A stretch of 64,000 nt of DNA from positions 62,858-126,857 of the forward strand of contig CAYRMI010000002.1 of NCBI GenBank assembly GCA_964425625.1, given 5' to 3'. This DNA comes from an uncultured Candidatus Saccharibacteria bacterium (GTDB lineage Bacteria > Patescibacteriota > Minisyncoccia > Phycocordibacterales > UBA918). The notes below the pieces were generated by a model, which ran no database searches, had not been told where the DNA came from, and saw only the letters and a list, made by a program, of their open reading frames with translations. Both the position numbers and the translations under genes were made by a program. Below, in pieces: positions 43,128-64,000 of the stretch; the first letter of the stretch is position 1; each line of letters begins with the position of its first letter.

Positions 43128-46055
43128 TCACTCCGTAAAGGCGTTTGCCGAGAAAGGTGTTAGTAGTAATTGCAGAGAGATTAGAAATGGGCGTTTTTTG
43201 GGTAATATTTTCCCTATCGGGTTGGTTGAATTCGGGACTGTCACTTGTTTGATACTTGGAGTATCGCTTAGTTTAACTGGTTCCTCTAGTAGTGAGATTA
43301 TCACGTCTCTATTATTGGATGGAAGACGGTGGTCAATATCAGTCGGGGAGCTATCTAGTCCAGTAAATTTCTTGAATTCTACCATTTCTTCAATCTGATC
43401 TATGGTTAGTGGAAAATCACTTGTCGTGCCACAATATATATCATTAATTTTCTTCTGAGTGGTGTAATAAACAACTCCAGAGTCACGTTTGAGCCCCCAA
43501 GGATACAGTACTTCACTGGCGTAAAGTTGTTGGAAATCTCGGACGGCGATTTCAGTCTGAAGATCGAAGTTTCCGGTGACGACCAAATTGCTACCGAGGT
43601 GAGCTTTTAGAAAAGCCTGCAATTTTTTTACTTCCTCTACATCATTGGCTTGACCATACTTCATGTAGGTGGTTAGGTAGGGAGTACAATAGCTGGTCAT
43701 AGCACCGAGGACAGCGGGAGTTATCTCTCCAATACTAATAGTATGAGTGGAACTTTTTGAGGTGTAGGCCTTTCCTTTGGTAACAGAATCGTAGCCAGAA
43801 AAGCCAGTTACCTCAGCCGTATTTTTGTATTCACCAAAAGTAGCGTCTTGGGCAAATTCCATAGTATAAGTGAGGGTGATACTTTCCTTAGGACGGATAG
43901 TTCCCAGGTCCCAGTACTGCTCGCTACTAGTGGTCCCATTGGCATTGGCTAGACGGTCACGAACTAGTGCTTTGTAGAGAGGTCCGCCTTTGTTGGTGAC
44001 AGTGATTGTATAGTCGACTAAGCCACCGGGATTTGCGGCCTTGACGTTGGCAGTTTTTATTACTTCTAGGTTGGGTAAAGTGGTGTGGCCACGTGATTTA
44101 CCACCACCTACTGGTTTGCCAGCAAAAATTGATAGTAATTCAGTATTGTCAGCTTCATTGGCGTCTGGTTCGAATGATGAAACTACCGCTTGGCTGATGA
44201 TTTCGTGTTTTCCTAATCCTAATTGCTCACTTACTTTGGTTCTGATACTAACTTCCTTTGTCTCATGGGGGGCAATATTACCCAAATTCCAGTTACCGTA
44301 TTTTCCTCTAGTATCATTAAGAATTTCCTCTGGGGCAGAAAGGTAAACAGATTGATTTTCAGGTAGGAAATGATTGAGTTTTACGTCGGTAGCGGTTGCA
44401 TCACCATGGTTGGTGATAGTATAAGTATATTCAACTTCTGAACCAGGTAAGATGGGGTTTTGTAATGAAGTTGCTTTACCACCAAGCCACAGGTCAGGCT
44501 GTCCGAAGGCGATGTTACCACTCCAATCGCCAAAGATATCAAATACCAACAGGGCCCAATTTTGTCCTAAAATATTGGTGTTGGCTACGTTTGTTATATT
44601 TGTGGCAGAGTAGGCGTCGCCGGTTTTTATGAGGCCATTTTCGCCGGCTTTGTTGTCGCCGGTGAGGGCGTAGACAGAAACGTTATTTTTGACATTTGCC
44701 TGGTTGTTATTGTTGATTTCATTACGGTTACTAGAAATGAAATTTTGCTGTGAATTCGTGTTGTACAGGGTTATTCCATGTTCGGTTTCGGTCCAGGCAA
44801 TGCCTTCCGGTAGGCCTAAGATGTCGCCACTCCAATCGCCATGGACGCGTAGCACCAAAAGAAAATCATTGTCACCAAATAGATTGGTGTTTACTATATT
44901 ACTGACACTACTATCCGCGTAAGTATCTCCGGTATAAATAGCCCCGCTCGTCAATTCGTTTGCTCCAGTTTCTGACTCTGTGGTGAGTACGTTTTCGATC
45001 GTAGCTGAATTAGTAGCGCTACTGTTAAAATTTTGGAGAGATGAACCATTAGCACTGAAAAGACTATTTAGTAACTCTGCTCCCGGGAGGACTATATCTT
45101 CTGTATAGTCGCCAAAATTATTGAAAGCCAATAGTAGATAGTTACTATCAGTGATATTGGTGTTGGCGATATTTAGGAGGTTAGCGACAGCATAAGCATC
45201 ACCAGTATCTATCATACCACTACCAATTTCATTAGCACCAGTTTGGGCTCTAACGATTATTTCGTTGGTAATACTAGCTTCGTTGGTCGTATTTATGTAA
45301 GTAGTTTTGCCCTCCCCAGAACAGATTGAAGGAGCACAAGCGACGGTAGATTCTGATGTTTGGGTGTCAGTGAAAACATTAAAGGCCTCTCGAAGGTCAA
45401 GAGGATTAACACCTAAAACTTCATTAAAAAATCCAATTAAACCGGTGGAATTAAAAATATTGGTATTTACTACGTTGACAATATTGGCGTAGGCAATTGC
45501 GTCGCCGGTGAGGATAACTGAACTCGTACCTGAAGCTTCATTGTCTCCGGTCTCAGCTATTACCTCTATGATGTTTGAAACAATCGCGGTGTTGGTGGTA
45601 GTAGAGATGATGGTCGGGTCAGTTATAGTTTGTGGGTTTTGAATGTCTGGAGAAAGAGTATGTGATAACTCTATTATTTCGTCACTAGGCAAATTTTCAT
45701 TGGAGGTCTCCTCGGTGGCTTTGTCTAACGAAACATCAACCACTACCTCGCTAACTCCATCTGTAGTGTCGATAGGTTCTGCTGTTGGGTTTGGTAAATT
45801 AGTAGCTTCGTTGAGGTTGATTGTTGTGTTTATTTCAGCTCCTGCTATCGCTTCACCTGTCTCTAGTACAGTGAGGGTTTCTGACGGTTCCATAACTGTG
45901 AGATTGATGGGATTTGTCACTTCTTGGTCAGTAATTATTTCTGTATTGGCTAGTATTGGAGAGAGGGGAGTTAGTAAAATGGCCATAATCACGAAAACGG
46001 CAAGAATTGTGAATGGAACACGATGGTTATGATGCTTTGTTGAGTAGTAATACAT
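43128..46055 (-). CDS. Large cell-surface protein. It has novel N-terminal ~50-aa repeats, DUF11-like repeats and a C-terminal PG_binding_1-like peptidoglycan-binding domain.
   Basis: Signal/anchor at the N-terminus. There are at least four repeats of the form ETGxNExxSGxxxTGDAxAxANxxNxxNTNI. DUF11-like segments include TITNHGDATATDVKLN and TVTNKGGPLYKALVRD. The C-terminus VEEVKKLQAFLKAHLGSNLVVTGNFDLQTEIAVRDFQ resembles PG_binding_1. Confidence 0.65.
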   Translation of the reverse strand: MYYYSTKHHNHRVPFTILAVFVIMAILLTPLSPILANTEIITDQEVTNPINLTVMEPSETLTVLETGEAIAGAEINTTINLNEATNLPNPTAEPIDTTDGVSEVVVDVSLDKATEETSNENLPSDEIIELSHTLSPDIQNPQTITDPTIISTTTNTAIVSNIIEVIAETGDNEASGTSSVILTGDAIAYANIVNVVNTNIFNSTGLIGFFNEVLGVNPLDLREAFNVFTDTQTSESTVACAPSICSGEGKTTYINTTNEASITNEIIVRAQTGANEIGSGMIDTGDAYAVANLLNIANTNITDSNYLLLAFNNFGDYTEDIVLPGAELLNSLFSANGSSLQNFNSSATNSATIENVLTTESETGANELTSGAIYTGDTYADSSVSNIVNTNLFGDNDFLLVLRVHGDWSGDILGLPEGIAWTETEHGITLYNTNSQQNFISSNRNEINNNNQANVKNNVSVYALTGDNKAGENGLIKTGDAYSATNITNVANTNILGQNWALLVFDIFGDWSGNIAFGQPDLWLGGKATSLQNPILPGSEVEYTYTITNHGDATATDVKLNHFLPENQSVYLSAPEEILNDTRGKYGNWNLGNIAPHETKEVSIRTKVSEQLGLGKHEIISQAVVSSFEPDANEADNTELLSIFAGKPVGGGKSRGHTTLPNLEVIKTANVKAANPGGLVDYTITVTNKGGPLYKALVRDRLANANGTTSSEQYWDLGTIRPKESITLTYTMEFAQDATFGEYKNTAEVTGFSGYDSVTKGKAYTSKSSTHTISIGEITPAVLGAMTSYCTPYLTTYMKYGQANDVEEVKKLQAFLKAHLGSNLVVTGNFDLQTEIAVRDFQQLYASEVLYPWGLKRDSGVVYYTTQKKINDIYCGTTSDFPLTIDQIEEMVEFKKFTGLDSSPTDIDHRLPSNNRDVIISLLEEPVKLSDTPSIKQVTVPNSTNPIGKILPKKRPFLISLQLLLTPFSANAFTE

Positions 46056-56782: not shown

Positions 56783-58363
56783 CTATATTATATTTCTCGC
56801 TTTAAGAATTTCCTTTACTTGCATTTCAGTGAGGGGGATCCAGGGAGAGCTTTCGGGATTGGCGGCCGAGGCGGCTGGGCTTTCACCCTGGTTCCACCAT
56901 TTGGCGCGGAAGGGGACACCTTCAAACATTACTCGATCACCCGCATCGTAGACGGCGTTGCCATACCATTGGGGAAACAAATAGAGCGGTAGTTCAAGTT
57001 TTTCCATCGGCTTTTCGCCGGGCAAGACGGGGCCAACCAGGCGCCAAGGAGTTTCCCAGGCTTGCAAGACTGGGTTGTCGGGTAAGTCATTTTTGGTCCA
57101 CCATTTAGCTTCGTAGACATTTCCGTGCCAGACGACTTTTGTGTCCTTTAAGTATATGCCGGTATCCCGCCAGATTTGGTAAGGACTGGTTTCCGGATCG
57201 TCAATAACGTGCTTACTAGTGTCTGGTTCCTCAACCGTCATCATCCTGGCGTTTTGCATTAGGTCCCCAGTAAAACCAATTCCGAGTACATTGGAAAAAG
57301 CAAATCGAGGTGAGGTTACACCACTACACAGATCTGACACTACTGAGAGCGTTACGTAGTTTGCGCCACAAGGAATATCTCGATTGGCCGACCACATTGA
57401 CATTCGACCAATCCCTTTCTCGCGGGCAAAGATGTTGAGCGCAACCGCGTCTTCGATAGAAAAGATTTCTTCTACCACGTCATTCTGACCAATCATCGGC
57501 GTGGCTCCAATTTTCCCCCAGATGGTAGAACTATTGAGACTCACTCCGGCTAGCTTGTATAAGACACTGAGTTGACGATGGGTTTCCAGTAGGGCATTTT
57601 CAGAAGCTTCGGCCATTGTATCATTTGGATTTTTACTACCGCCATAATCCATAGTCATAACATTTACTCCAGCTAGATCAAGCTCACTTTCGAGCACCTT
57701 ACTGACAGCGTTTGTTCCGTCTGTAGTGAGTCCTTGGGGGGCAACTGGTAAAGTGAGCCAGACGGCCAATTCTCGGTTTTCGGCGCGGTATTCTTTTTGT
57801 AGTTTGGCAATTACCCGAGCGCGTCTTTCGGCGGCTTCAAGGTTGGTCAAGCCTTCCTTTTCTAAATCAAGGTCAATAGTATTAATGTTATAGCGTTCGA
57901 TCACTGCTTGATAGGCTTTCGCCAGAGCTTCTTCATCGGTACATAGTACAGCCAGCTCAGAGTTTAGTAGACCACCAAAGGAGATCGCGATTCGTCCACC
58001 CTGGAGCTGGAAGTGAGCAATTCGTCTATCTAAGTCAAGTGCCTCGGCGGCCTCGTCTAGGGTGTAATAACCTCCCCAGGTGGGAGTACAAACGTCACTA
58101 GCGGAAGAAACGATAAAGGAAAGAATCACATCAGAATTATCAACTGCTCCTCTTTGTTCAAAGGCATAGAGTGGGGTGGAGGTGACATCTACGTAAGCTG
58201 CAAACCAAGGAGCAAAGCTCACTACCTCGGCTGTCTCTTGCCACTTACCAAAACTTAAGGTCGTACCATAAAAAAGACCGAGGATAATTATTATCGCTAG
58301 GAACAATCGGCGTAGTGAAAGTTGGCGACGAGTTTCAACAGTGACTGATTTTTGTGTTTCCAT
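56783..58363 (-). CDS. GH18 chitinase-like glycoside hydrolase with two C-terminal CBM5/12 chitin-binding modules.
   Basis: N-terminal TM/signal. GH18 motifs: SxGG (AISFGGLLNSE), DxDxE (NTIDLDLEKE) and MxYD (MTMDYGG). Two W-W CBM5/12-like modules follow (VVWHGNVYEAKWWTKND and VMFEGVPFRAKWWNQGE). Confidence 0.65.
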   Translation of the reverse strand: METQKSVTVETRRQLSLRRLFLAIIIILGLFYGTTLSFGKWQETAEVVSFAPWFAAYVDVTSTPLYAFEQRGAVDNSDVILSFIVSSASDVCTPTWGGYYTLDEAAEALDLDRRIAHFQLQGGRIAISFGGLLNSELAVLCTDEEALAKAYQAVIERYNINTIDLDLEKEGLTNLEAAERRARVIAKLQKEYRAENRELAVWLTLPVAPQGLTTDGTNAVSKVLESELDLAGVNVMTMDYGGSKNPNDTMAEASENALLETHRQLSVLYKLAGVSLNSSTIWGKIGATPMIGQNDVVEEIFSIEDAVALNIFAREKGIGRMSMWSANRDIPCGANYVTLSVVSDLCSGVTSPRFAFSNVLGIGFTGDLMQNARMMTVEEPDTSKHVIDDPETSPYQIWRDTGIYLKDTKVVWHGNVYEAKWWTKNDLPDNPVLQAWETPWRLVGPVLPGEKPMEKLELPLYLFPQWYGNAVYDAGDRVMFEGVPFRAKWWNQGESPAASAANPESSPWIPLTEMQVKEILKARNII

Positions 58364-58369
58364 AGATAA

Positions 58370-60607
58370 TTAATTAGTTTTACTGGTAGTTACACTTGGC
58401 CAATTTAAAAGGGGAATGCGCCAGGTAGTTTTGGGCTTACTTTCTTTGATCGGCACCTCAATATAAAGCCAGTCAGTGGCTGCTAACCACAAATCAACCA
58501 GCATATTTTTTGCGCCAATATAGGCCACGATAGCCCAGGTAGCAGTCAAAGCGTTAAAGCCAGCGAAAGCTGCATTACCCCAGTTTTGCCCTTCAATATT
58601 TCGCCACAGAGTGAAGAGAGAGAAACCGATAATTAAAAGTGGTGAGACTAAGTACAACCAGGCTGTGGCAGTGCGGTTCTTCACTTTCGGCGTACGAGCA
58701 AAGGGGGTCTTCTTGGTGGTGATAGCTTGCTGAAGTGATTTTAGAGTACCAGCAATATTAACTGGTAAGAGAATTAAGTTGAAACCATAAATACGGAAAA
58801 TGTCACTATATTTATAACGACAATATTTGAGGTCCATCGCCATAGCGATAAAATAGGGGGCAGCAGCTAATAGTACCAAGGGACTGAGGAGACGTCCGTC
58901 ATAGGGATAAGCGAGTAGAAAGACTAGTCCAAAACTTGACCAAGCAATGGAGAGCATGTAGTTGGTCCGAATCAAAAACTCGAGTCGAGAAATTGGTCTA
59001 CCAGCGTGCTTTCTAATATGACAAAGTTTTAAAAGTTTGGGAAAAATCAGCAATCCTCCGTTGGCCCAACGACGTCGTTGTACAACGAGTGAACCAAAGT
59101 CCGGAGGAGTAGCACTATAGCTTAGACGTTCAGGATAATTTAAGAGTCGCCAATTGTGTATGGCCATGTCGATACTTGATTCGGTATCTTCAATCACGGT
59201 GTGATCTTGTACATATCTTTTAATTTCAAAACCACCCACAAATTCCGTTTCTACAATATCTTCTAGAGCGCGCTTGCGGATTACGGCATTAGCGCCAACC
59301 CAGAAAGTAGCGTTGTAGTAGCTCATACCTTGGTGCAGGATGTGTTGAACATCGGTGGTGGCTCCGGCCAGACGTTCTAGGCGCGAAGAAGCACCACGAA
59401 AAGATGAGTAAGGAGTTTGTATTACCGCCACGTCAGAATTATTTGGCTGCTCAAGGGAATAAATCAAACGCGAACAGTATTCACGTAAGAGAATTGAATC
59501 AGCATCGAGGGTAAGAATATAATCACTATCTGGTATTACTAAATCGGCCTCACTAGCTTTTTTGGTCTCGAGCAAAATAGTCCCCTCAGAGGCTTCTACT
59601 TTACGGTACATGCCACCCATTAGTCCGATATATGAATTGAGGTTCATCGCTTTGTTTACTTCATGCGAAAGCGAGATGTAGCGTTTGCGTTCAAAAAAAT
59701 CTAACTTGGCGCGAAAAATCCAAACCAGACGGTTGCATAGTTGTTGCATCCGGCCACGAGAAATTTTTTCACCGCTTAGGTTAATGGTCGTAAGTTCAGA
59801 AGCTTCCAAGCGTAAGTCCTTGGCTAACTCGATAAATATTTGCTCAGCAAAAAATATATCGACATGGTCTTCGATTACTTCAGCTTTGGCTTTTTGTTCT
59901 AACCAACTAGCTGACCAGAGGTATTGTTCGATAATTCTTTCGACTGCTTGTTTGGTATAAGCAAAGTCTTTTTCTTGTAGCTCGGTTTGTAGCTCTATGG
60001 CTTTGACGTAGGGTTCACTAAGAAACGCTTCAATCTCAGCACCGAGAGCCTTAGTCTTGGTAATTCGCTCTACATCAGCGGGTTTAACATTGAATGGATT
60101 ATCGTCGATTAGTAAAACAACCCGCAAGTCTGAATGTTCTTGCAAGGCGGCTGAAAGTAGGGTTTTGCGAATAACCTGAACTTCTTCATTGTAGGAGGGT
60201 ACCAAAACAGTAATGGAGGATGGGTGCTTGGCAAAATGTTCATCCAGCAGTCGTTGGGGTGTACGCACATGCTTTTTAAAATTTTGTAATGCGCCTTGTC
60301 TAGTGATGAGGTAGATGAGAGCTGATAAAGTGAGCAAGGTGACAATGAACGTGTAACCAATTACTTCAGTGGTAAAGTTGTAGCTCTGCGGTCCATCAAT
60401 GAGTTGTCGAATAATGACCGAGGTAATGTACATCAACCAAAAAACAATCGTGAGTACAATAGCAATACGACTATAAGCAATAGCAAAATCAGTCGGCTTG
60501 GGATGGATGCTTGGTAGGGGATTGGTATTTTTTTCCGCCCCAAACTGACGTCGGAAATTGACAGGACTTAGTAGAGGAGAGGTGTTGTTTTCAGTTGAAT
60601 TTTGCAT
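58370..60607 (-). CDS. Processive family-2 glycosyltransferase (cellulose/chitin/NodC/HAS-like beta-glycan synthase).
   Basis: N-terminal TM helices. The motifs are D (VVLLIDDN), DxD (LTLDADSIL), and QxxRW (QRRRWANGG) followed by C-terminal TM helices. 745 aa. It is co-oriented with the GH18 gene and 6 nt upstream of it. Confidence 0.75.
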   Translation of the reverse strand: MQNSTENNTSPLLSPVNFRRQFGAEKNTNPLPSIHPKPTDFAIAYSRIAIVLTIVFWLMYITSVIIRQLIDGPQSYNFTTEVIGYTFIVTLLTLSALIYLITRQGALQNFKKHVRTPQRLLDEHFAKHPSSITVLVPSYNEEVQVIRKTLLSAALQEHSDLRVVLLIDDNPFNVKPADVERITKTKALGAEIEAFLSEPYVKAIELQTELQEKDFAYTKQAVERIIEQYLWSASWLEQKAKAEVIEDHVDIFFAEQIFIELAKDLRLEASELTTINLSGEKISRGRMQQLCNRLVWIFRAKLDFFERKRYISLSHEVNKAMNLNSYIGLMGGMYRKVEASEGTILLETKKASEADLVIPDSDYILTLDADSILLREYCSRLIYSLEQPNNSDVAVIQTPYSSFRGASSRLERLAGATTDVQHILHQGMSYYNATFWVGANAVIRKRALEDIVETEFVGGFEIKRYVQDHTVIEDTESSIDMAIHNWRLLNYPERLSYSATPPDFGSLVVQRRRWANGGLLIFPKLLKLCHIRKHAGRPISRLEFLIRTNYMLSIAWSSFGLVFLLAYPYDGRLLSPLVLLAAAPYFIAMAMDLKYCRYKYSDIFRIYGFNLILLPVNIAGTLKSLQQAITTKKTPFARTPKVKNRTATAWLYLVSPLLIIGFSLFTLWRNIEGQNWGNAAFAGFNALTATWAIVAYIGAKNMLVDLWLAATDWLYIEVPIKESKPKTTWRIPLLNWPSVTTSKTN

Positions 60608-60846: not shown

Positions 60847-62127
60847 ATGGCCAATATTCAATTGATTCTGCTGGCAATTTTGGTTGGATTAATAACAGCT
60901 GTCTCGTGTATCAGTTTTCACTGGCTGATTGAACTTTTCACCTACCTATTTTTTGGGGTAAGTGAAAAGGAAAACTTCATTACTACTGTAGAGGGACTTT
61001 CTGCCAGTATTAGAGTTCTCATACCAACCATGGGTGGATTTCTGGTGGGTTTGGTTTTTACTATACTTAAGGGAGTAGGAGCTACCGGTGAAGGTGTACC
61101 AGAAGTACTTAAAGCCGTGCTCTTTAATCAAAGCAAGATTAAGTTTTTGGTTGCTCCAGCTAAAATTGTTACTACGGCGATTACGCTTGGCTCTGGTGGT
61201 TCAGCCGGACGTGAAGGACCGATTGTACAAATTGGTTCGGCTATAGGGTCAACCATCGGACAGATTTTTAAACAAAATGAATCGACCACTCGTCTGCTAC
61301 TTGCAGCCGGTGCGGCCGCGGGTATTGGGGGTACTTTTGGTGCCCCGCTAGCGGGTGTGTTGTTTAGTCTAGAACTAATTTTTCGTCGCGCCACACCTAA
61401 GTTTGTCCTGATTATGATCCTTTCGGCCATAATCTCAGAGCAGGTGACTAGTCGGGTATTAGGATTTGAGGGTCTACGGCTCAGTTTACCAGAATCTTTC
61501 ACTGTTACTAGTGAGTTACTTTTTATTAGCTTATTTATAGGAATTATGTCAGGGCTCTTAGGAGTTTGCTTTGGCTATAGTATTCGCTTGTCTGAGTGGT
61601 CTTTTGGGGCGTTGAAGTTACCTCTGCTAGTGACAAGTACATTAGGTGGATTGATGATTGGTTTACTCGGTCTTTATTTTCCCTATATCCACGAACCAGC
61701 CACTTATCCATTAATGATTGACTTACTAACTGTCGGTAGCCTACCAATTATGTTGTTAGTTTGTTTACTTGTTGTAAAGATAATTGCGACTGCCATTACT
61801 CTTGGGTCAGGTGGTTCGGGCGGTATCTTAGCTCCATCAATTTTGTCTGGTTTGATTTTTGGTACTGTATTGTCTTCTTTAGTGATGATGACTGGATTAT
61901 TTACCACGACTGATAGTGTGGCTTTTGGTCTAATAGGAATGGCTGGCGTATTTGCTGGGGTGACTCATGCTCCCTTCACGGCTATCTTTCTTTTGTATGA
62001 AATAACTGGTGAACCAATGGTGATTCTTTTATTGACCCTAAGTACGTTACTAGCTTATTTTACTGCCAAGTATGTTCGTCCGGAAAGTGTCTATACCGAA
62101 CATATCACTAAACGACCGATTATCTAA
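60847..62127 (+). CDS. ClC-family chloride channel/transporter.
   Basis: GSGGSAGREGP selectivity-filter motif, a second GSGGSGGILAP motif, and polytopic topology. The start is taken at the ATG 60847 (MANIQL). Confidence 0.8.
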   Translation: MANIQLILLAILVGLITAVSCISFHWLIELFTYLFFGVSEKENFITTVEGLSASIRVLIPTMGGFLVGLVFTILKGVGATGEGVPEVLKAVLFNQSKIKFLVAPAKIVTTAITLGSGGSAGREGPIVQIGSAIGSTIGQIFKQNESTTRLLLAAGAAAGIGGTFGAPLAGVLFSLELIFRRATPKFVLIMILSAIISEQVTSRVLGFEGLRLSLPESFTVTSELLFISLFIGIMSGLLGVCFGYSIRLSEWSFGALKLPLLVTSTLGGLMIGLLGLYFPYIHEPATYPLMIDLLTVGSLPIMLLVCLLVVKIIATAITLGSGGSGGILAPSILSGLIFGTVLSSLVMMTGLFTTTDSVAFGLIGMAGVFAGVTHAPFTAIFLLYEITGEPMVILLLTLSTLLAYFTAKYVRPESVYTEHITKRPII

Positions 62128-62290
62128 CCCCGAGGCAGCGCTCGGAGTGTTATGTGACTAACTGGTATAAGTTTGGACCGTCTTTTTAGGGTACTAAACT
62201 ATTAAAATTATGACTATTTCCATATTCACTGAAAGCGATATGTTAAAATTATTTAGATAAAGTAGAGATTCTAATGGTACAATAGTTATT

Positions 62291-62461
62291 ATGGATGATA
62301 AATCTTTAAGAGATTTTAATATCTTACTTCAAGCAAAACCCGAATTGGCTCGACAGAATTTAATAAATGAAATGCGAGTTTTTTTGGAGACTTACCAAAA
62401 AGCACTACAAAAAAGAGAAATAGAATGGCTTGAAGAACAAGCTCTCTTAGAAAATGACTAA
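62291..62461 (+). CDS. Small helical protein (56 aa), translationally coupled to the downstream calpain-like protease.
   Basis: Translated by hand as MDDKSLRDFNILLQAKPELARQNLINEMRVFLETYQKALQKREIEWLEEQALLEND. Its stop overlaps the downstream ATG by 8 nt. A TACAAT -10-like element lies upstream. Confidence 0.4.
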   Translation: MDDKSLRDFNILLQAKPELARQNLINEMRVFLETYQKALQKREIEWLEEQALLEND

Positions 62462-63929
62462 TATGGAAGGTTTAAACAAACAACACAAAGAAACAAAAAA
62501 ACCTGAATACGAAACTATTAATGATTCTTCAGATGCAACGTCTACTCATATAGGACAAACAGAAATAACTGAAGCCTCATACTTTGATTTAGTGGCGGAT
62601 GATCCGCTAATGTACGATTATAAGGTGGCAGATAAATCAGTTTTGTCTGAACCTGCCACCGGTTCTCTGGAGACGAATGTAATTTCAGTGGATGAAAAAA
62701 AAGAAGTAGATGAGACCGATACAGAACATATCGCCGAGTCTGAAATGATCGAGGGACTGGCGGAGACTTTAGAATCCGAAATAGTAAACATTGAGAAAGA
62801 GTTTCATTTGCCACCGGGAGAAGTAGATAAAGTGCGAGAAGAATTGGGGGTATCTAAAATTGTTTCTAGTATGCTAGAAAAATGGAAGAATCTTCTTCAT
62901 TATTCGGGGCTTCAAACTAAGAAATATCCCAAGACTAAAATTTCTGAAAGATATCATTCGGTAAGAGAATCTTTAAAAAACCGCGAAAGAGAAATAAGAC
63001 CTGAGGTTATTAGAGAGGCCCGCGAGGCGGCTACTAGGTTGTTTGAAGGAAGAGGACTCTTTTCGTTAACAAAGGAAGAATTCAATAATTACTTTATTTC
63101 AGACGAAGAATTTGATGCTGGACCACATTTGAAACAAGCTAATGTTGGTGACTGTTATTTAGTAGCTGCTATTCATGCACTGAGTCGATCCCCGAATTTT
63201 GAAACAATCTGTAGAGCCTCCATGTTACGCCAAAGTGACGGTAGTTGGGAAATTAGAATACCGCTGTTGGGTGATCAAAGTGATGTGATTAAGATTACTC
63301 AAGAAGAAATAAATTCTCAAACTAATGATAGATTCTTTAAGAAAAGCACGACCGGTGGTTCTCTTGACTTGCGTCATAAGCTATATTCACTTTCTGGGAA
63401 TGAAGGATTTAGAGCCTTAGAAGCGGCGTACATTAAGCATAAGTTTGGCAGTGTTGATCGCCTGGCTGCTGAAGGAGGATATGGTGAAGAGGTCCTGCTC
63501 CGATTAGGGGGTGATAACTTTGTTCATTACTCTATTCATTCAGCCACCTATGATCATAATGAAAAGATTATCGATTCTGGGCTACAATCAGTAACCGAGG
63601 AAAATCTTGCCTATTTGGATCATTATTTAGAGACTTTTGATTCTGAGACACATATAGCAACAGTAAACACAAATTATGGTGCTGGGAAGTTGGCCAACGT
63701 TTATCGAGTAGAAGGTACCTCAACTTTTCTAATACCTGGACATGCCTATTCACTTTCTGCAGTGGACATACAACGAAAGCTTGTCACCGTGGTAAATCCT
63801 TGGGATACTTCAAAATCAATAATCCTTAGTTTTGATCAGTTTAAAGAAAATTTTTCCTCATTGAGTGCTGTAAGAATTAACAACGCTAAGTTGTTGGCGC
63901 GAATGACAAAAGAAGGTGATATGTTATAA
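62454..63929 (+). CDS. Calpain-like (peptidase C2 family) cysteine protease with an acidic N-terminal region.
   Basis: Catalytic Cys motif QANVGDCYLVAAIHALS, His motif LIPGHAYSLSAV and Asn motif VTVVNPWD, all in calpain order. The N-terminal ~180 aa are acidic and low-complexity. Confidence 0.75.
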   Translation: MTNMEGLNKQHKETKKPEYETINDSSDATSTHIGQTEITEASYFDLVADDPLMYDYKVADKSVLSEPATGSLETNVISVDEKKEVDETDTEHIAESEMIEGLAETLESEIVNIEKEFHLPPGEVDKVREELGVSKIVSSMLEKWKNLLHYSGLQTKKYPKTKISERYHSVRESLKNREREIRPEVIREAREAATRLFEGRGLFSLTKEEFNNYFISDEEFDAGPHLKQANVGDCYLVAAIHALSRSPNFETICRASMLRQSDGSWEIRIPLLGDQSDVIKITQEEINSQTNDRFFKKSTTGGSLDLRHKLYSLSGNEGFRALEAAYIKHKFGSVDRLAAEGGYGEEVLLRLGGDNFVHYSIHSATYDHNEKIIDSGLQSVTEENLAYLDHYLETFDSETHIATVNTNYGAGKLANVYRVEGTSTFLIPGHAYSLSAVDIQRKLVTVVNPWDTSKSIILSFDQFKENFSSLSAVRINNAKLLARMTKEGDML

Positions 63930-63932
63930 ATT

Positions 63933-64000
63933 ATGAATATGCATAATATGGAACAACCAAGTATGGAGACTGGACCACATAACTTAGCTAGGCGGTTTGA
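63933..64000 (+). CDS. Start of an ORF truncated at the window edge.
   Basis: ATG at 63933 is open through 64000. It is too short to classify. Confidence 0.2.
   Translation, partial: MNMHNMEQPSMETGPHNLARRF

Follow-up and report, generated by a model that had tools for sequence, protein, structure and literature searches.

A three-gene operon with a calpain-like cysteine protease and a small protein of predicted cystatin-like fold in Patescibacteria

Organization of the locus

We have analysed a 64,000-nucleotide stretch of DNA from an uncultured Candidatus Saccharibacteria bacterium (contig CAYRMI010000002.1, positions 62,858 to 126,857 of the forward strand, assembly GCA_964425625.1). This whole stretch is referred to below as the window, and positions are counted from its first nucleotide (nt). 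Close to its end there is a three-gene operon that codes for a small helical protein (gene 1), a calpain-like cysteine protease (gene 2) and a protein of ca. 95 amino acids (aa) with a predicted cystatin-like fold (gene 3). Genes 1 and 2 and the beginning of gene 3 lie inside the window. The operon is confined almost entirely to the Patescibacteria (candidate phyla radiation). Gene 1 (62291..62461, + strand), an open reading frame (ORF) that is also called in public assemblies, codes for an acidic protein of 56 aa with an isoelectric point (pI) of 4.7, helical by its sequence pattern alone. Gene 2 (62454..63929, +) codes for a 491-aa cysteine protease of the calpain type (MEROPS C2). An earlier reading of this DNA, made without database searches (here the sequence-only reading), had described these two ORFs and their 8-nt overlap correctly, and had taken them for a two-component module. 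There are in fact three genes at the locus, and the conserved core pair is that of the protease and gene 3.

The 8 nt shared by genes 1 and 2 (ATGACTAA) are found where the end of gene 1 (...GAA AAT GAC TAA) holds an embedded ATG. Another ATG in the same frame, at 62463, corresponds in the alignment to the Met1 of the closest homologue, 61% identical (protease P0002, locus L008), and the spacing would be +1 instead of -8 if this codon were used; the genes abut in both cases. This overlap had been read as implying stoichiometric co-expression, which is overstated, as it suggests translational coupling and proves no stoichiometry. The unit does not finish with the protease. Its stop codon (63927-63929) is followed by 3 nt and by the ATG of a third co-oriented gene at 63933, which runs off the window at 64000 after 22 codons (63933..64000, +). 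An identical continuation on contigs L001-L004 gives a full gene 3 of 291 nt and 96 aa (L002:2327-2617), and in L001 there is an intrinsic terminator after it. The values of the ratio of non-synonymous to synonymous substitution rates (dN/dS) indicate purifying selection on all three genes.

Loci and contigs with homologous cassette genes have been numbered L001-L031, and the survey of their gene context covered ca. 25 loci, with at least 5 coming from a metagenome scan. The same three-gene locus, with 100% protein identity, is present in assembly GCA_020049755.1 (>55,000 contigs) and in runs SRR11674015, SRR13355620 and SRR11674051 (L001-L004); being found in one assembly and three separate runs, the organism has been seen repeatedly.

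The protease

The catalytic triad of calpains had been recognized in its canonical context in the sequence-only reading, and this part has stood up well. The motifs QANVGDCYLVAAIHALS (Cys234, codon 63153-63155), PGHAYSL (His430, 63741-63743) and VNPWD (Asn448, 63795-63797) are all present, and in an alignment of 26 protease sequences Q228, C234 and H430 are invariant, with N448 conserved in at least 90%; Q228 is the Gln of the oxyanion hole. A profile search, the check that had been put forward for this assignment, bears it out: Pfam Peptidase_C2 (PF00648) matches residues 225-452 at 29.8 bits, above the gathering cutoff of 23.8 (E=4.1e-7). We collected 66 protease homologues, all with a PF00648-type match or close similarity, and nearly all with a precomputed PF00648 annotation. 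Every named one comes from a metagenome-assembled genome (MAG) of Patescibacteria, some of them titled “C2 family cysteine protease” by NCBI. The matches in genome collections mostly carry the names of Patescibacteria lineages too (one record is titled “bacterium” and one “uncultured Bdellovibrionales”), and Elulimicrobium was confirmed to belong within Patescibacteria.

The distance to the well-known calpains is large. A single-sequence search against the PDB sequences gave no match, and calpains were reached only with the family profile, which aligns DLkQqnvGDCYlvaAi to DICQGGLGDCWLLAAI and HaYS…nPW to HAYSV…RNPW of human calpain-8/-1. NCBIfam gave only meaningless sub-threshold matches. The AlphaFold (AF2) model of the protease has a mean predicted local distance difference test (pLDDT) score of 75, with values of 90 or more over most of the core (ca. 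residues 230-480). When this model was compared with the PDB by Foldseek, rat m-calpain (1u5i_A) was the top match and the only one at E<=0.001 (E=1.9e-5, probability 1.00, 279 columns); the template-modelling scores are low (0.24-0.30), being normalised over full-length chains. The papain/calpain-like catalytic core (residues 216-475, 63099..63878, +), supported by conserved columns and by the calpain alignment, has a dN/dS of 0.12 against L008. Judging from sequence and model together, gene 2 codes for a new member of the known calpain family (C2) of cysteine proteases, with an intact Gln/Cys/His/Asn centre.

The N-terminal region is more complex than had been described. Of the ca. 180 aa of acidic low-complexity sequence in the sequence-only reading, only residues 1-92 (62454..62729, +) are acidic and disordered (pLDDT<50, pI 4.28, 22 D+E vs. 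8 K+R), while residues 89-215 are modelled as helical and are conserved. This part holds a helical N-module of ca. 57 aa (residues 100-156, 62751..62921, +) that includes …IEKEFHLPPGEVDKVREELGV…, and the model has helices at 89-116, 123-131 and 133-153. Within the disordered acidic region we noticed the motif SYFDLVADDPLM (62574-62609), kept in P0002/L008 as SYVDLVADDPLM, which could be a linear motif for binding or cleavage. Across the family the proteins span from 343 to 866 aa, the N-termini varying in length and content and the catalytic domain being conserved.

Bacterial calpain homologues have been reported in only seven phyla, among which there is no candidate phylum, and arguably none has been characterised biochemically (Rawlings, 2015, PMC4631099), so that they had rightly been called rare in bacteria. 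The window protease belongs to the Patescibacteria, outside those seven, and our full-text literature searches found no paper on calpains in this group. It shares with the family, including Tpr of Porphyromonas gingivalis, the order Gln/Cys/His/Asn, the motif context and the papain-like two-lobe core. The Pfam scan found no EF-hand or C2-like domain, and other bacterial calpain homologues are likewise devoid of them (PMC4631099). On the other hand, the core is only ca. 18% identical to that of m-calpain, and in contrast with known calpains the N-terminus is made of a disordered acidic stretch and helical modules, and the gene is part of a conserved cassette with small genes.

The downstream gene

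An ORF of 85-103 aa of the gene 3 family follows the protease in L001, L008-L012, L014-L018, L020, L022, L023 and L027-L031, at distances from -23 to +45 nt and in lineages labelled Elulimicrobium, Saccharibacteria, Moraniibacteriota, Falkowbacteria and Azambacteria, among others. L031 represents a divergent subgroup in which gene 3 again follows the protease, fragmented there. Among the well-preserved loci a protease without gene 3 was found only in L024, an outlier of 31% identity, and decayed copies of gene 3 were found in L019 and in one unit of the L023 array (see below). The gene has a dN/dS of 0.14 and the mean column identity of its alignment is 57%, so that it is better conserved than the protease N-terminus. 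A G-x-x-x-G hairpin (…VVGQKNGF…) is conserved in the alignment, together with a TLCC strand, and in a deeper alignment of 37 sequences (54% identity) Tyr47, Ser49, Cys57 and Tyr69 are invariant and the C-terminal residue is always Ser, Gly or Ala.

The family is small. A single-sequence search gave 4 matches and an alignment-based one 99, that is, 99 clusters at 90% identity; at 50% identity, 1.84 billion representatives yield 49 clusters, a few of which are spurious matches to repeat proteins. Among the candidates that we rejected as relatives are P0199, P0204, P0205, P0207 and similar ones, long repeat proteins of the leucine-rich-variant type that match only a “PEDLALLAKDKD”-like motif. They are built of “NTxPExLALLAKDxDxxVR” repeats, which match the gene 3 profile at “PDDLxLLLEDKDG”, a resemblance that we judged to be at the level of a motif only.

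The AF2 model of gene 3 (pLDDT 87) has a helical segment at residues 10-29, formed by two consecutive helices, and then five strands. Among its structural neighbours cystatins come at the top and protease inhibitors are dominant, with scores that are only moderate; the sole high-probability match of Foldseek is a designed protein with the cystatin fold. Cystatins inhibit clan-CA proteases. Like cystatins and stefins (MEROPS I25, PF00031), gene 3 is a protein of ca. 90-100 aa that is modelled with one helix on a five-stranded antiparallel sheet. Unlike them, it has no sequence similarity to the family, the helix comes first with no N-terminal strand or trunk, and it has an invariant Tyr/Ser/Cys-Cys/Tyr signature of its own. 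As far as can be judged from the model, the fold is cystatin-like, yet the protein is not classed as a cystatin, and it is possible that it represents a new bacterial family of protease inhibitors with a cystatin-like fold. A staphostatin-like barrel had also been considered and was ruled out by the model, which does not have the eight strands of the staphostatin type (MEROPS I57); there is no staphostatin among the structural matches listed.

Tandem arrays and orphan copies

Tandem copies of the protease together with gene 3 were found in sample ERZ25070786. One Patescibacteria contig of 728 kb (L022:1-14691) has at least six protease/gene 3 pairs arranged head to tail, and another of 25 kb (L023:1-9646) has four, one of them with a degraded gene 3. 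Both arrays are located directly upstream (47 nt) of rpsS-rplV-rpsC and on the same strand. The proteases of the arrays range from 553 to 866 aa and differ in their N-termini, made of variable numbers of helical repeats (…EKVQGFDDDTIQ…), and the gene 3 proteins are >90% identical.

From the same sample we also retrieved an intact gene 3 with no protease (L026:8001-8282), in a contig of 4.19 Mb and 62% GC. The last 16 residues of the ORF preceding it match the C-terminus of the array proteases, and at the DNA level there is 88-92% identity to the array over 65 nt of the protease 3′ end and over 290-338 nt covering gene 3 plus flank. Between these two array-like pieces there are ca. 210 nt of unrelated DNA that supply an AAGGAGG ribosome-binding site. 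The insert adjoins a Fic-domain gene, immediately upstream of it (region L026:7525-9454). In L031 a Fic-like ORF overlaps the 3′ end of gene 3 on the opposite strand, which might be a coincidence. The dN/dS of the orphan is 0.16-0.33 and its divergence equals that found among the array copies, so that selection in the new host is not demonstrable. A second copy without protease (P0163, in L025) is found in a 5.9-Mb contig, 2 nt after a 153-aa protein that belongs to no known family and in a neighbourhood (L025:5185-16276, with AAA_15/AAA_21 ATPase, WD40 protein, FGE-sulfatase, LRR protein and nSTAND/AAA gene) that looks like a conflict-system island. We thus count one clear orphan (L026) and one possible (L025). 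No relative was detected in viral contigs, so there is no sign of phage carriage, and PADLOC gave no match for any of the three proteins.

The upstream gene and the N-module

Gene 1 has a narrower distribution. ORFs of its family, 56-68 aa long, precede the protease in the window and in L008, L009, L010, L013, L018, L029 and L030. The protease of L013 leaves the end of the contig and provides no distance; the other gaps are -8, -23 (-14 with the protease start of the gene caller), +4, +9, -4, +6 and +4 nt, all of them overlaps or distances of no more than ca. 10 nt. A gene 1 copy also precedes the frameshifted protease of L020. The dN/dS is 0.31 against L008 (the 61%-identity homologue, dS ca. 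0.9) and 0.09-0.10 in three other pairs, with three further pairs saturated at synonymous sites, and these sites being near or at saturation in all pairs. The profile search for gene 1 covered 2205 ORFs, among which the window gene 1 is the best non-self match (E=0.021) to the profile of the larger group of upstream ORFs. No Pfam, NCBIfam or PADLOC family matched gene 1. Judged by these alignments, gene 1 is a genuine conserved gene in a subset of lineages. Conservation of the small ORF beside protease homologues, which the sequence-only reading had raised, therefore holds only in part: it is a selected gene, present in at least eight lineages and missing in about half of those with an intact catalytic domain. 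The proteases of L011, L014-16, L022-23, L027 and L028 have no such ORF before them. In L012 (Falkowbacteria) there is a 56-aa ORF that overlaps by 8 nt as in the window, but it has no detectable sequence similarity to gene 1.

What gene 1 does follow is the N-module. The profile of residues 100-156 matches the proteases of the window, L008, L009, L010, L018, L029 and L030, and none of the proteases lacking the upstream ORF family. The partial protease of L013 spans the N-module region in tblastn, and L020 could not be scored due to its frameshifted N-terminus. Gene 1 and N-module thus go together in ca. 8/8 lineages (7 scored and L013 inferred) against 0/ca. 8 for the rest, with p of ca. 1e-4 if the lineages were independent, which they are not fully. 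As gene 1 occurs only with the N-module at the scored loci, it is more likely an adaptor or chaperone for this module, and from the sequence comparisons it more likely works with the N-module than with the catalytic domain. We also considered that it might have been fused into the N-terminus of the proteases that lack it; the gene 1 profile matched no protease.

A decayed cassette was found in L019:2600-4330, beside a sequence that resembles a transfer RNA (judged by eye). Of gene 1 only a C-terminal remnant (…KEYREKLKQ…) is left there; gene 3 is truncated as well, and the protease has only 343 aa.

Comparison with known systems

There are several well-known cases in which a cysteine protease is co-transcribed with an adjacent specific inhibitor, namely SpeB-Spi, staphopain-staphostatin and Bfp-Bfi of Bacteroides (PMC2873492). 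As in these (e.g., scpAB and sspBC of the staphopains), our cassette has a clan-CA protease gene and then a small dedicated partner of ca. 100 aa, probably co-transcribed and presumed to protect the producer. The differences are also clear. Those proteases are secreted zymogens of families C47 and C10 with signal peptides, not found in the window protease. Staphostatins fold as lipocalin-like beta-barrels and Spi mimics the propeptide, whereas gene 3 is predicted to have a helix-plus-sheet, cystatin-like fold. Regarding calpains themselves, the cystatin domain 2 of kininogen inhibits calpain with an inhibition constant of ca. 1 nM (PMC7863939). The dedicated calpain inhibitor, calpastatin, is a long, disordered, multi-repeat eukaryotic protein (PMC7863939) and neither of the two small proteins resembles it.

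In LXG toxins small helical proteins bind the N-terminal domain of the toxin (PMC10801868), and the LXG toxin/Lap/immunity cassettes of Firmicutes (type VIIb) have the same gene order found here, i.e., small helical protein(s), an enzyme with a helical N-domain and a small partner. Unlike those cassettes, ours has no match to LXG, WXG100 or Lap families, nor did we see type VII genes close to it at the loci that we examined. The likeness is one of logic only, since in our case it is the N-terminus that varies and the C-terminal domain that is conserved. The order of enzyme domain and then small gene, and the strict pairing of both, recall polymorphic toxin systems, with gene 3 as the putative immunity gene. 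The conserved N-terminus with swapped C-terminal cassettes of such systems was not found; the pattern is reversed.

A protease with a proposed cognate inhibitor

We propose that the cassette codes for a protease with its cognate inhibitor or immunity protein (gene 3) and an accessory adaptor (gene 1), a reading to which we assign a probability of roughly 0.5. The protease would be made in the cytoplasm, with no signal peptide and with a variable N-terminal region, and gene 3 would bind the catalytic domain and keep the enzyme inactive in the producing cell. Gene 1, in the role of adaptor, chaperone or targeting factor, would pack against the N-module (residues 100-156). It would also be the first cistron of an mRNA with a short leader, its stop being coupled to the start of the protease. 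The cassette is a new variant of the theme of a protease with a cognate partner. For the sequence-only reading this means that its assignment of the partner was probably wrong, and that the key partner was just beyond the end of the DNA that it described.

There are a number of observations that weigh against this proposal. Regarding gene 3, cystatins A, B and C do not inhibit calpain (PMC7863939), and the alignment has no QxVxG or PW loop. Four members were scanned against Pfam: none had a cystatin match, three had no family at all at E<=10, and the fourth had only a sub-threshold match to T2SSC (11.8 bits vs. a cutoff of 27). Nor does the proposal explain the invariant Cys-Cys, Tyr and Ser. 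Regarding the export of the protease, there is no signal peptide (as had been noted already) nor any hydrophobic segment at its N-terminus, the Pfam scan found no LXG, PAAR, Rhs, WXG or similar trafficking domain, and no secretion genes were seen near the operon, the neighbours in the loci examined being housekeeping genes. In the arrays the N-termini vary and the catalytic domain and partner are kept, the reverse of classical polymorphic toxins. The orphan of L026 is a single case, inside or beside a Fic gene, and might be the product of a neutral horizontal transfer. Finally, the similarity of the window gene 1 to the larger group of upstream ORFs is weak, if specific, and both the counts of lineages and the p-value of co-occurrence treat lineages as independent, ignoring shared ancestry.

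One alternative is that gene 3 is a substrate or pro-protein of the protease, or else an obligatory cofactor, activator or foldase. Strict co-occurrence and co-duplication would suit any obligate partner, the invariant Cys-Cys/Tyr/Ser and the fixed Ser/Gly/Ala at the C-terminus hint at some chemistry or recognition beyond blocking, and staphostatins are themselves substrates that are slowly cleaved (PMC7863939). However, gene 3 is modelled with confidence as a compact domain and has no extension that could be cleaved off, its fold neighbours are mostly protease inhibitors, and the existence of a copy without the protease would be more readily understood if gene 3 were protective than if it were a substrate or cofactor. 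We consider this alternative rather unlikely.

The other is that the same pair acts purely inside the cell, as a toxin-antitoxin or abortive-infection module in which loss of the partner would free the protease to act on the proteins of its own cell. The lack of a signal peptide or known export domain would fit this well, and so would the presence of the cassette in unrelated housekeeping neighbourhoods, as happens with mobile addiction modules, and the decayed copies in L019, L020 and L031. Against it, there is no defence match in PADLOC, no DNA-binding antitoxin, and no copy found on viral contigs. Besides, the protease is large, with a long and variable N-terminal region, a typical trait of proteins that are targeted or delivered, and arrays of at least six near-identical pairs beside a ribosomal protein operon would be unusual for such modules. 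This too we regard as a minority possibility.

Between an intracellular role of this kind and a delivery of the protease against neighbouring or host cells, we would slightly favour delivery. Patescibacteria have a symbiotic lifestyle, attached to other microbes, and this, together with the arrays, the variable N-termini and the orphan copy, points to delivery; the missing signal peptide, known trafficking domain and linked secretion genes point away from it. The ways in which candidate-phyla bacteria affect their hosts or competitors have, to our knowledge, hardly been described. It is conceivable, if doubtful, that the calpain-like proteases of Patescibacteria are delivered weapons or effectors for the manipulation of hosts, with gene 3 providing self-immunity and gene 1 with the N-module acting as a new export or targeting signal, and that neighbours with large genomes have captured the immunity gene to protect themselves, as the orphan of L026 with its new ribosome-binding site would illustrate. 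If they were effectors with their immunity proteins, they would represent a novel kind of weapon, particular to these ultra-small bacteria. Captured copies of gene 3 could also be of use in metagenomes to connect symbionts with their hosts. In any event, the cassette provides a compact and testable pair of protease and partner, plus a small candidate adaptor linked to an optional N-terminal module.

The sequence-only reading had offered gene 1 as an inhibitor, chaperone or immunity-like partner of the protease, possibly like calpastatin, within a module of two genes. A calpastatin-like inhibitor or immunity role for it appears improbable. Gene 1 is tightly packed against the protease start or overlaps it, is under purifying selection and is small, acidic and predicted to be helical, as such a partner could be. 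However, it is missing from the loci listed above in spite of their intact and conserved catalytic domains, a far more constant partner is found downstream, and nothing similar to calpastatin or to any other family was found in it. Since its presence tracks the optional N-module and not the catalytic domain, gene 1 is unlikely to be an inhibitor or immunity partner of the latter, and of the roles offered that of chaperone, or of an adaptor, is the likelier one. That the 56-aa ORF is just a chance ORF or an untranslated leader, as its shortness, AT-rich context and lack of a Shine-Dalgarno sequence or family match might suggest, can be practically discarded given the dN/dS of 0.09-0.31 in the four estimable pairs (synonymous sites near or at saturation), the conservation of its length and position in at least eight divergent lineages and the absence of any Rfam element in the region.

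Tentative boundary of the operon and neighbouring genes

Upstream of the operon there is a gene for a CLC channel (Pfam identity) with its stop at 62127, and just after it the terminator scan detected a hairpin (62130..62145, +) with a weak T-tract, which we tentatively take as the 5′ boundary of the operon. A promoter-like site, TAGATA-18-TACAAT with an upstream TG (62254..62283, +), has its -10 box ending 7 nt before the ATG of gene 1. The promoter scan finds no more sites of this kind in the region than expected by chance. The tgTACAAT sequence is kept with the identical 7-nt spacing in L008, and -10 boxes of the TAnnAT type are found 6-13 nt before the first ATG of the cassette in the window, L008, L018, L030 and L024, with no Shine-Dalgarno sequence before that ATG in any of these five. 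Both the position of the -10 box and the missing Shine-Dalgarno sequence suggest a first gene that may be leaderless or nearly so. An Rfam scan of 61900-64000 gave a sub-threshold microRNA as its sole match and no leader RNA element.

Further upstream, two adjoining genes on the opposite strand (56783-60607, -) encode a glycosyltransferase of family 2 (745 aa), which has membrane segments, and a protein of 526 aa that has a CBM_5_12 domain and, below threshold, a GH18-like match (26.6 bits vs. a cutoff of 29.6). They are possibly a pair for the synthesis and turnover of a chitin-like polysaccharide. The window also has, at 43128-46055, a gene for a 975-aa surface protein with DUF11, CARDB and PG_binding domains.

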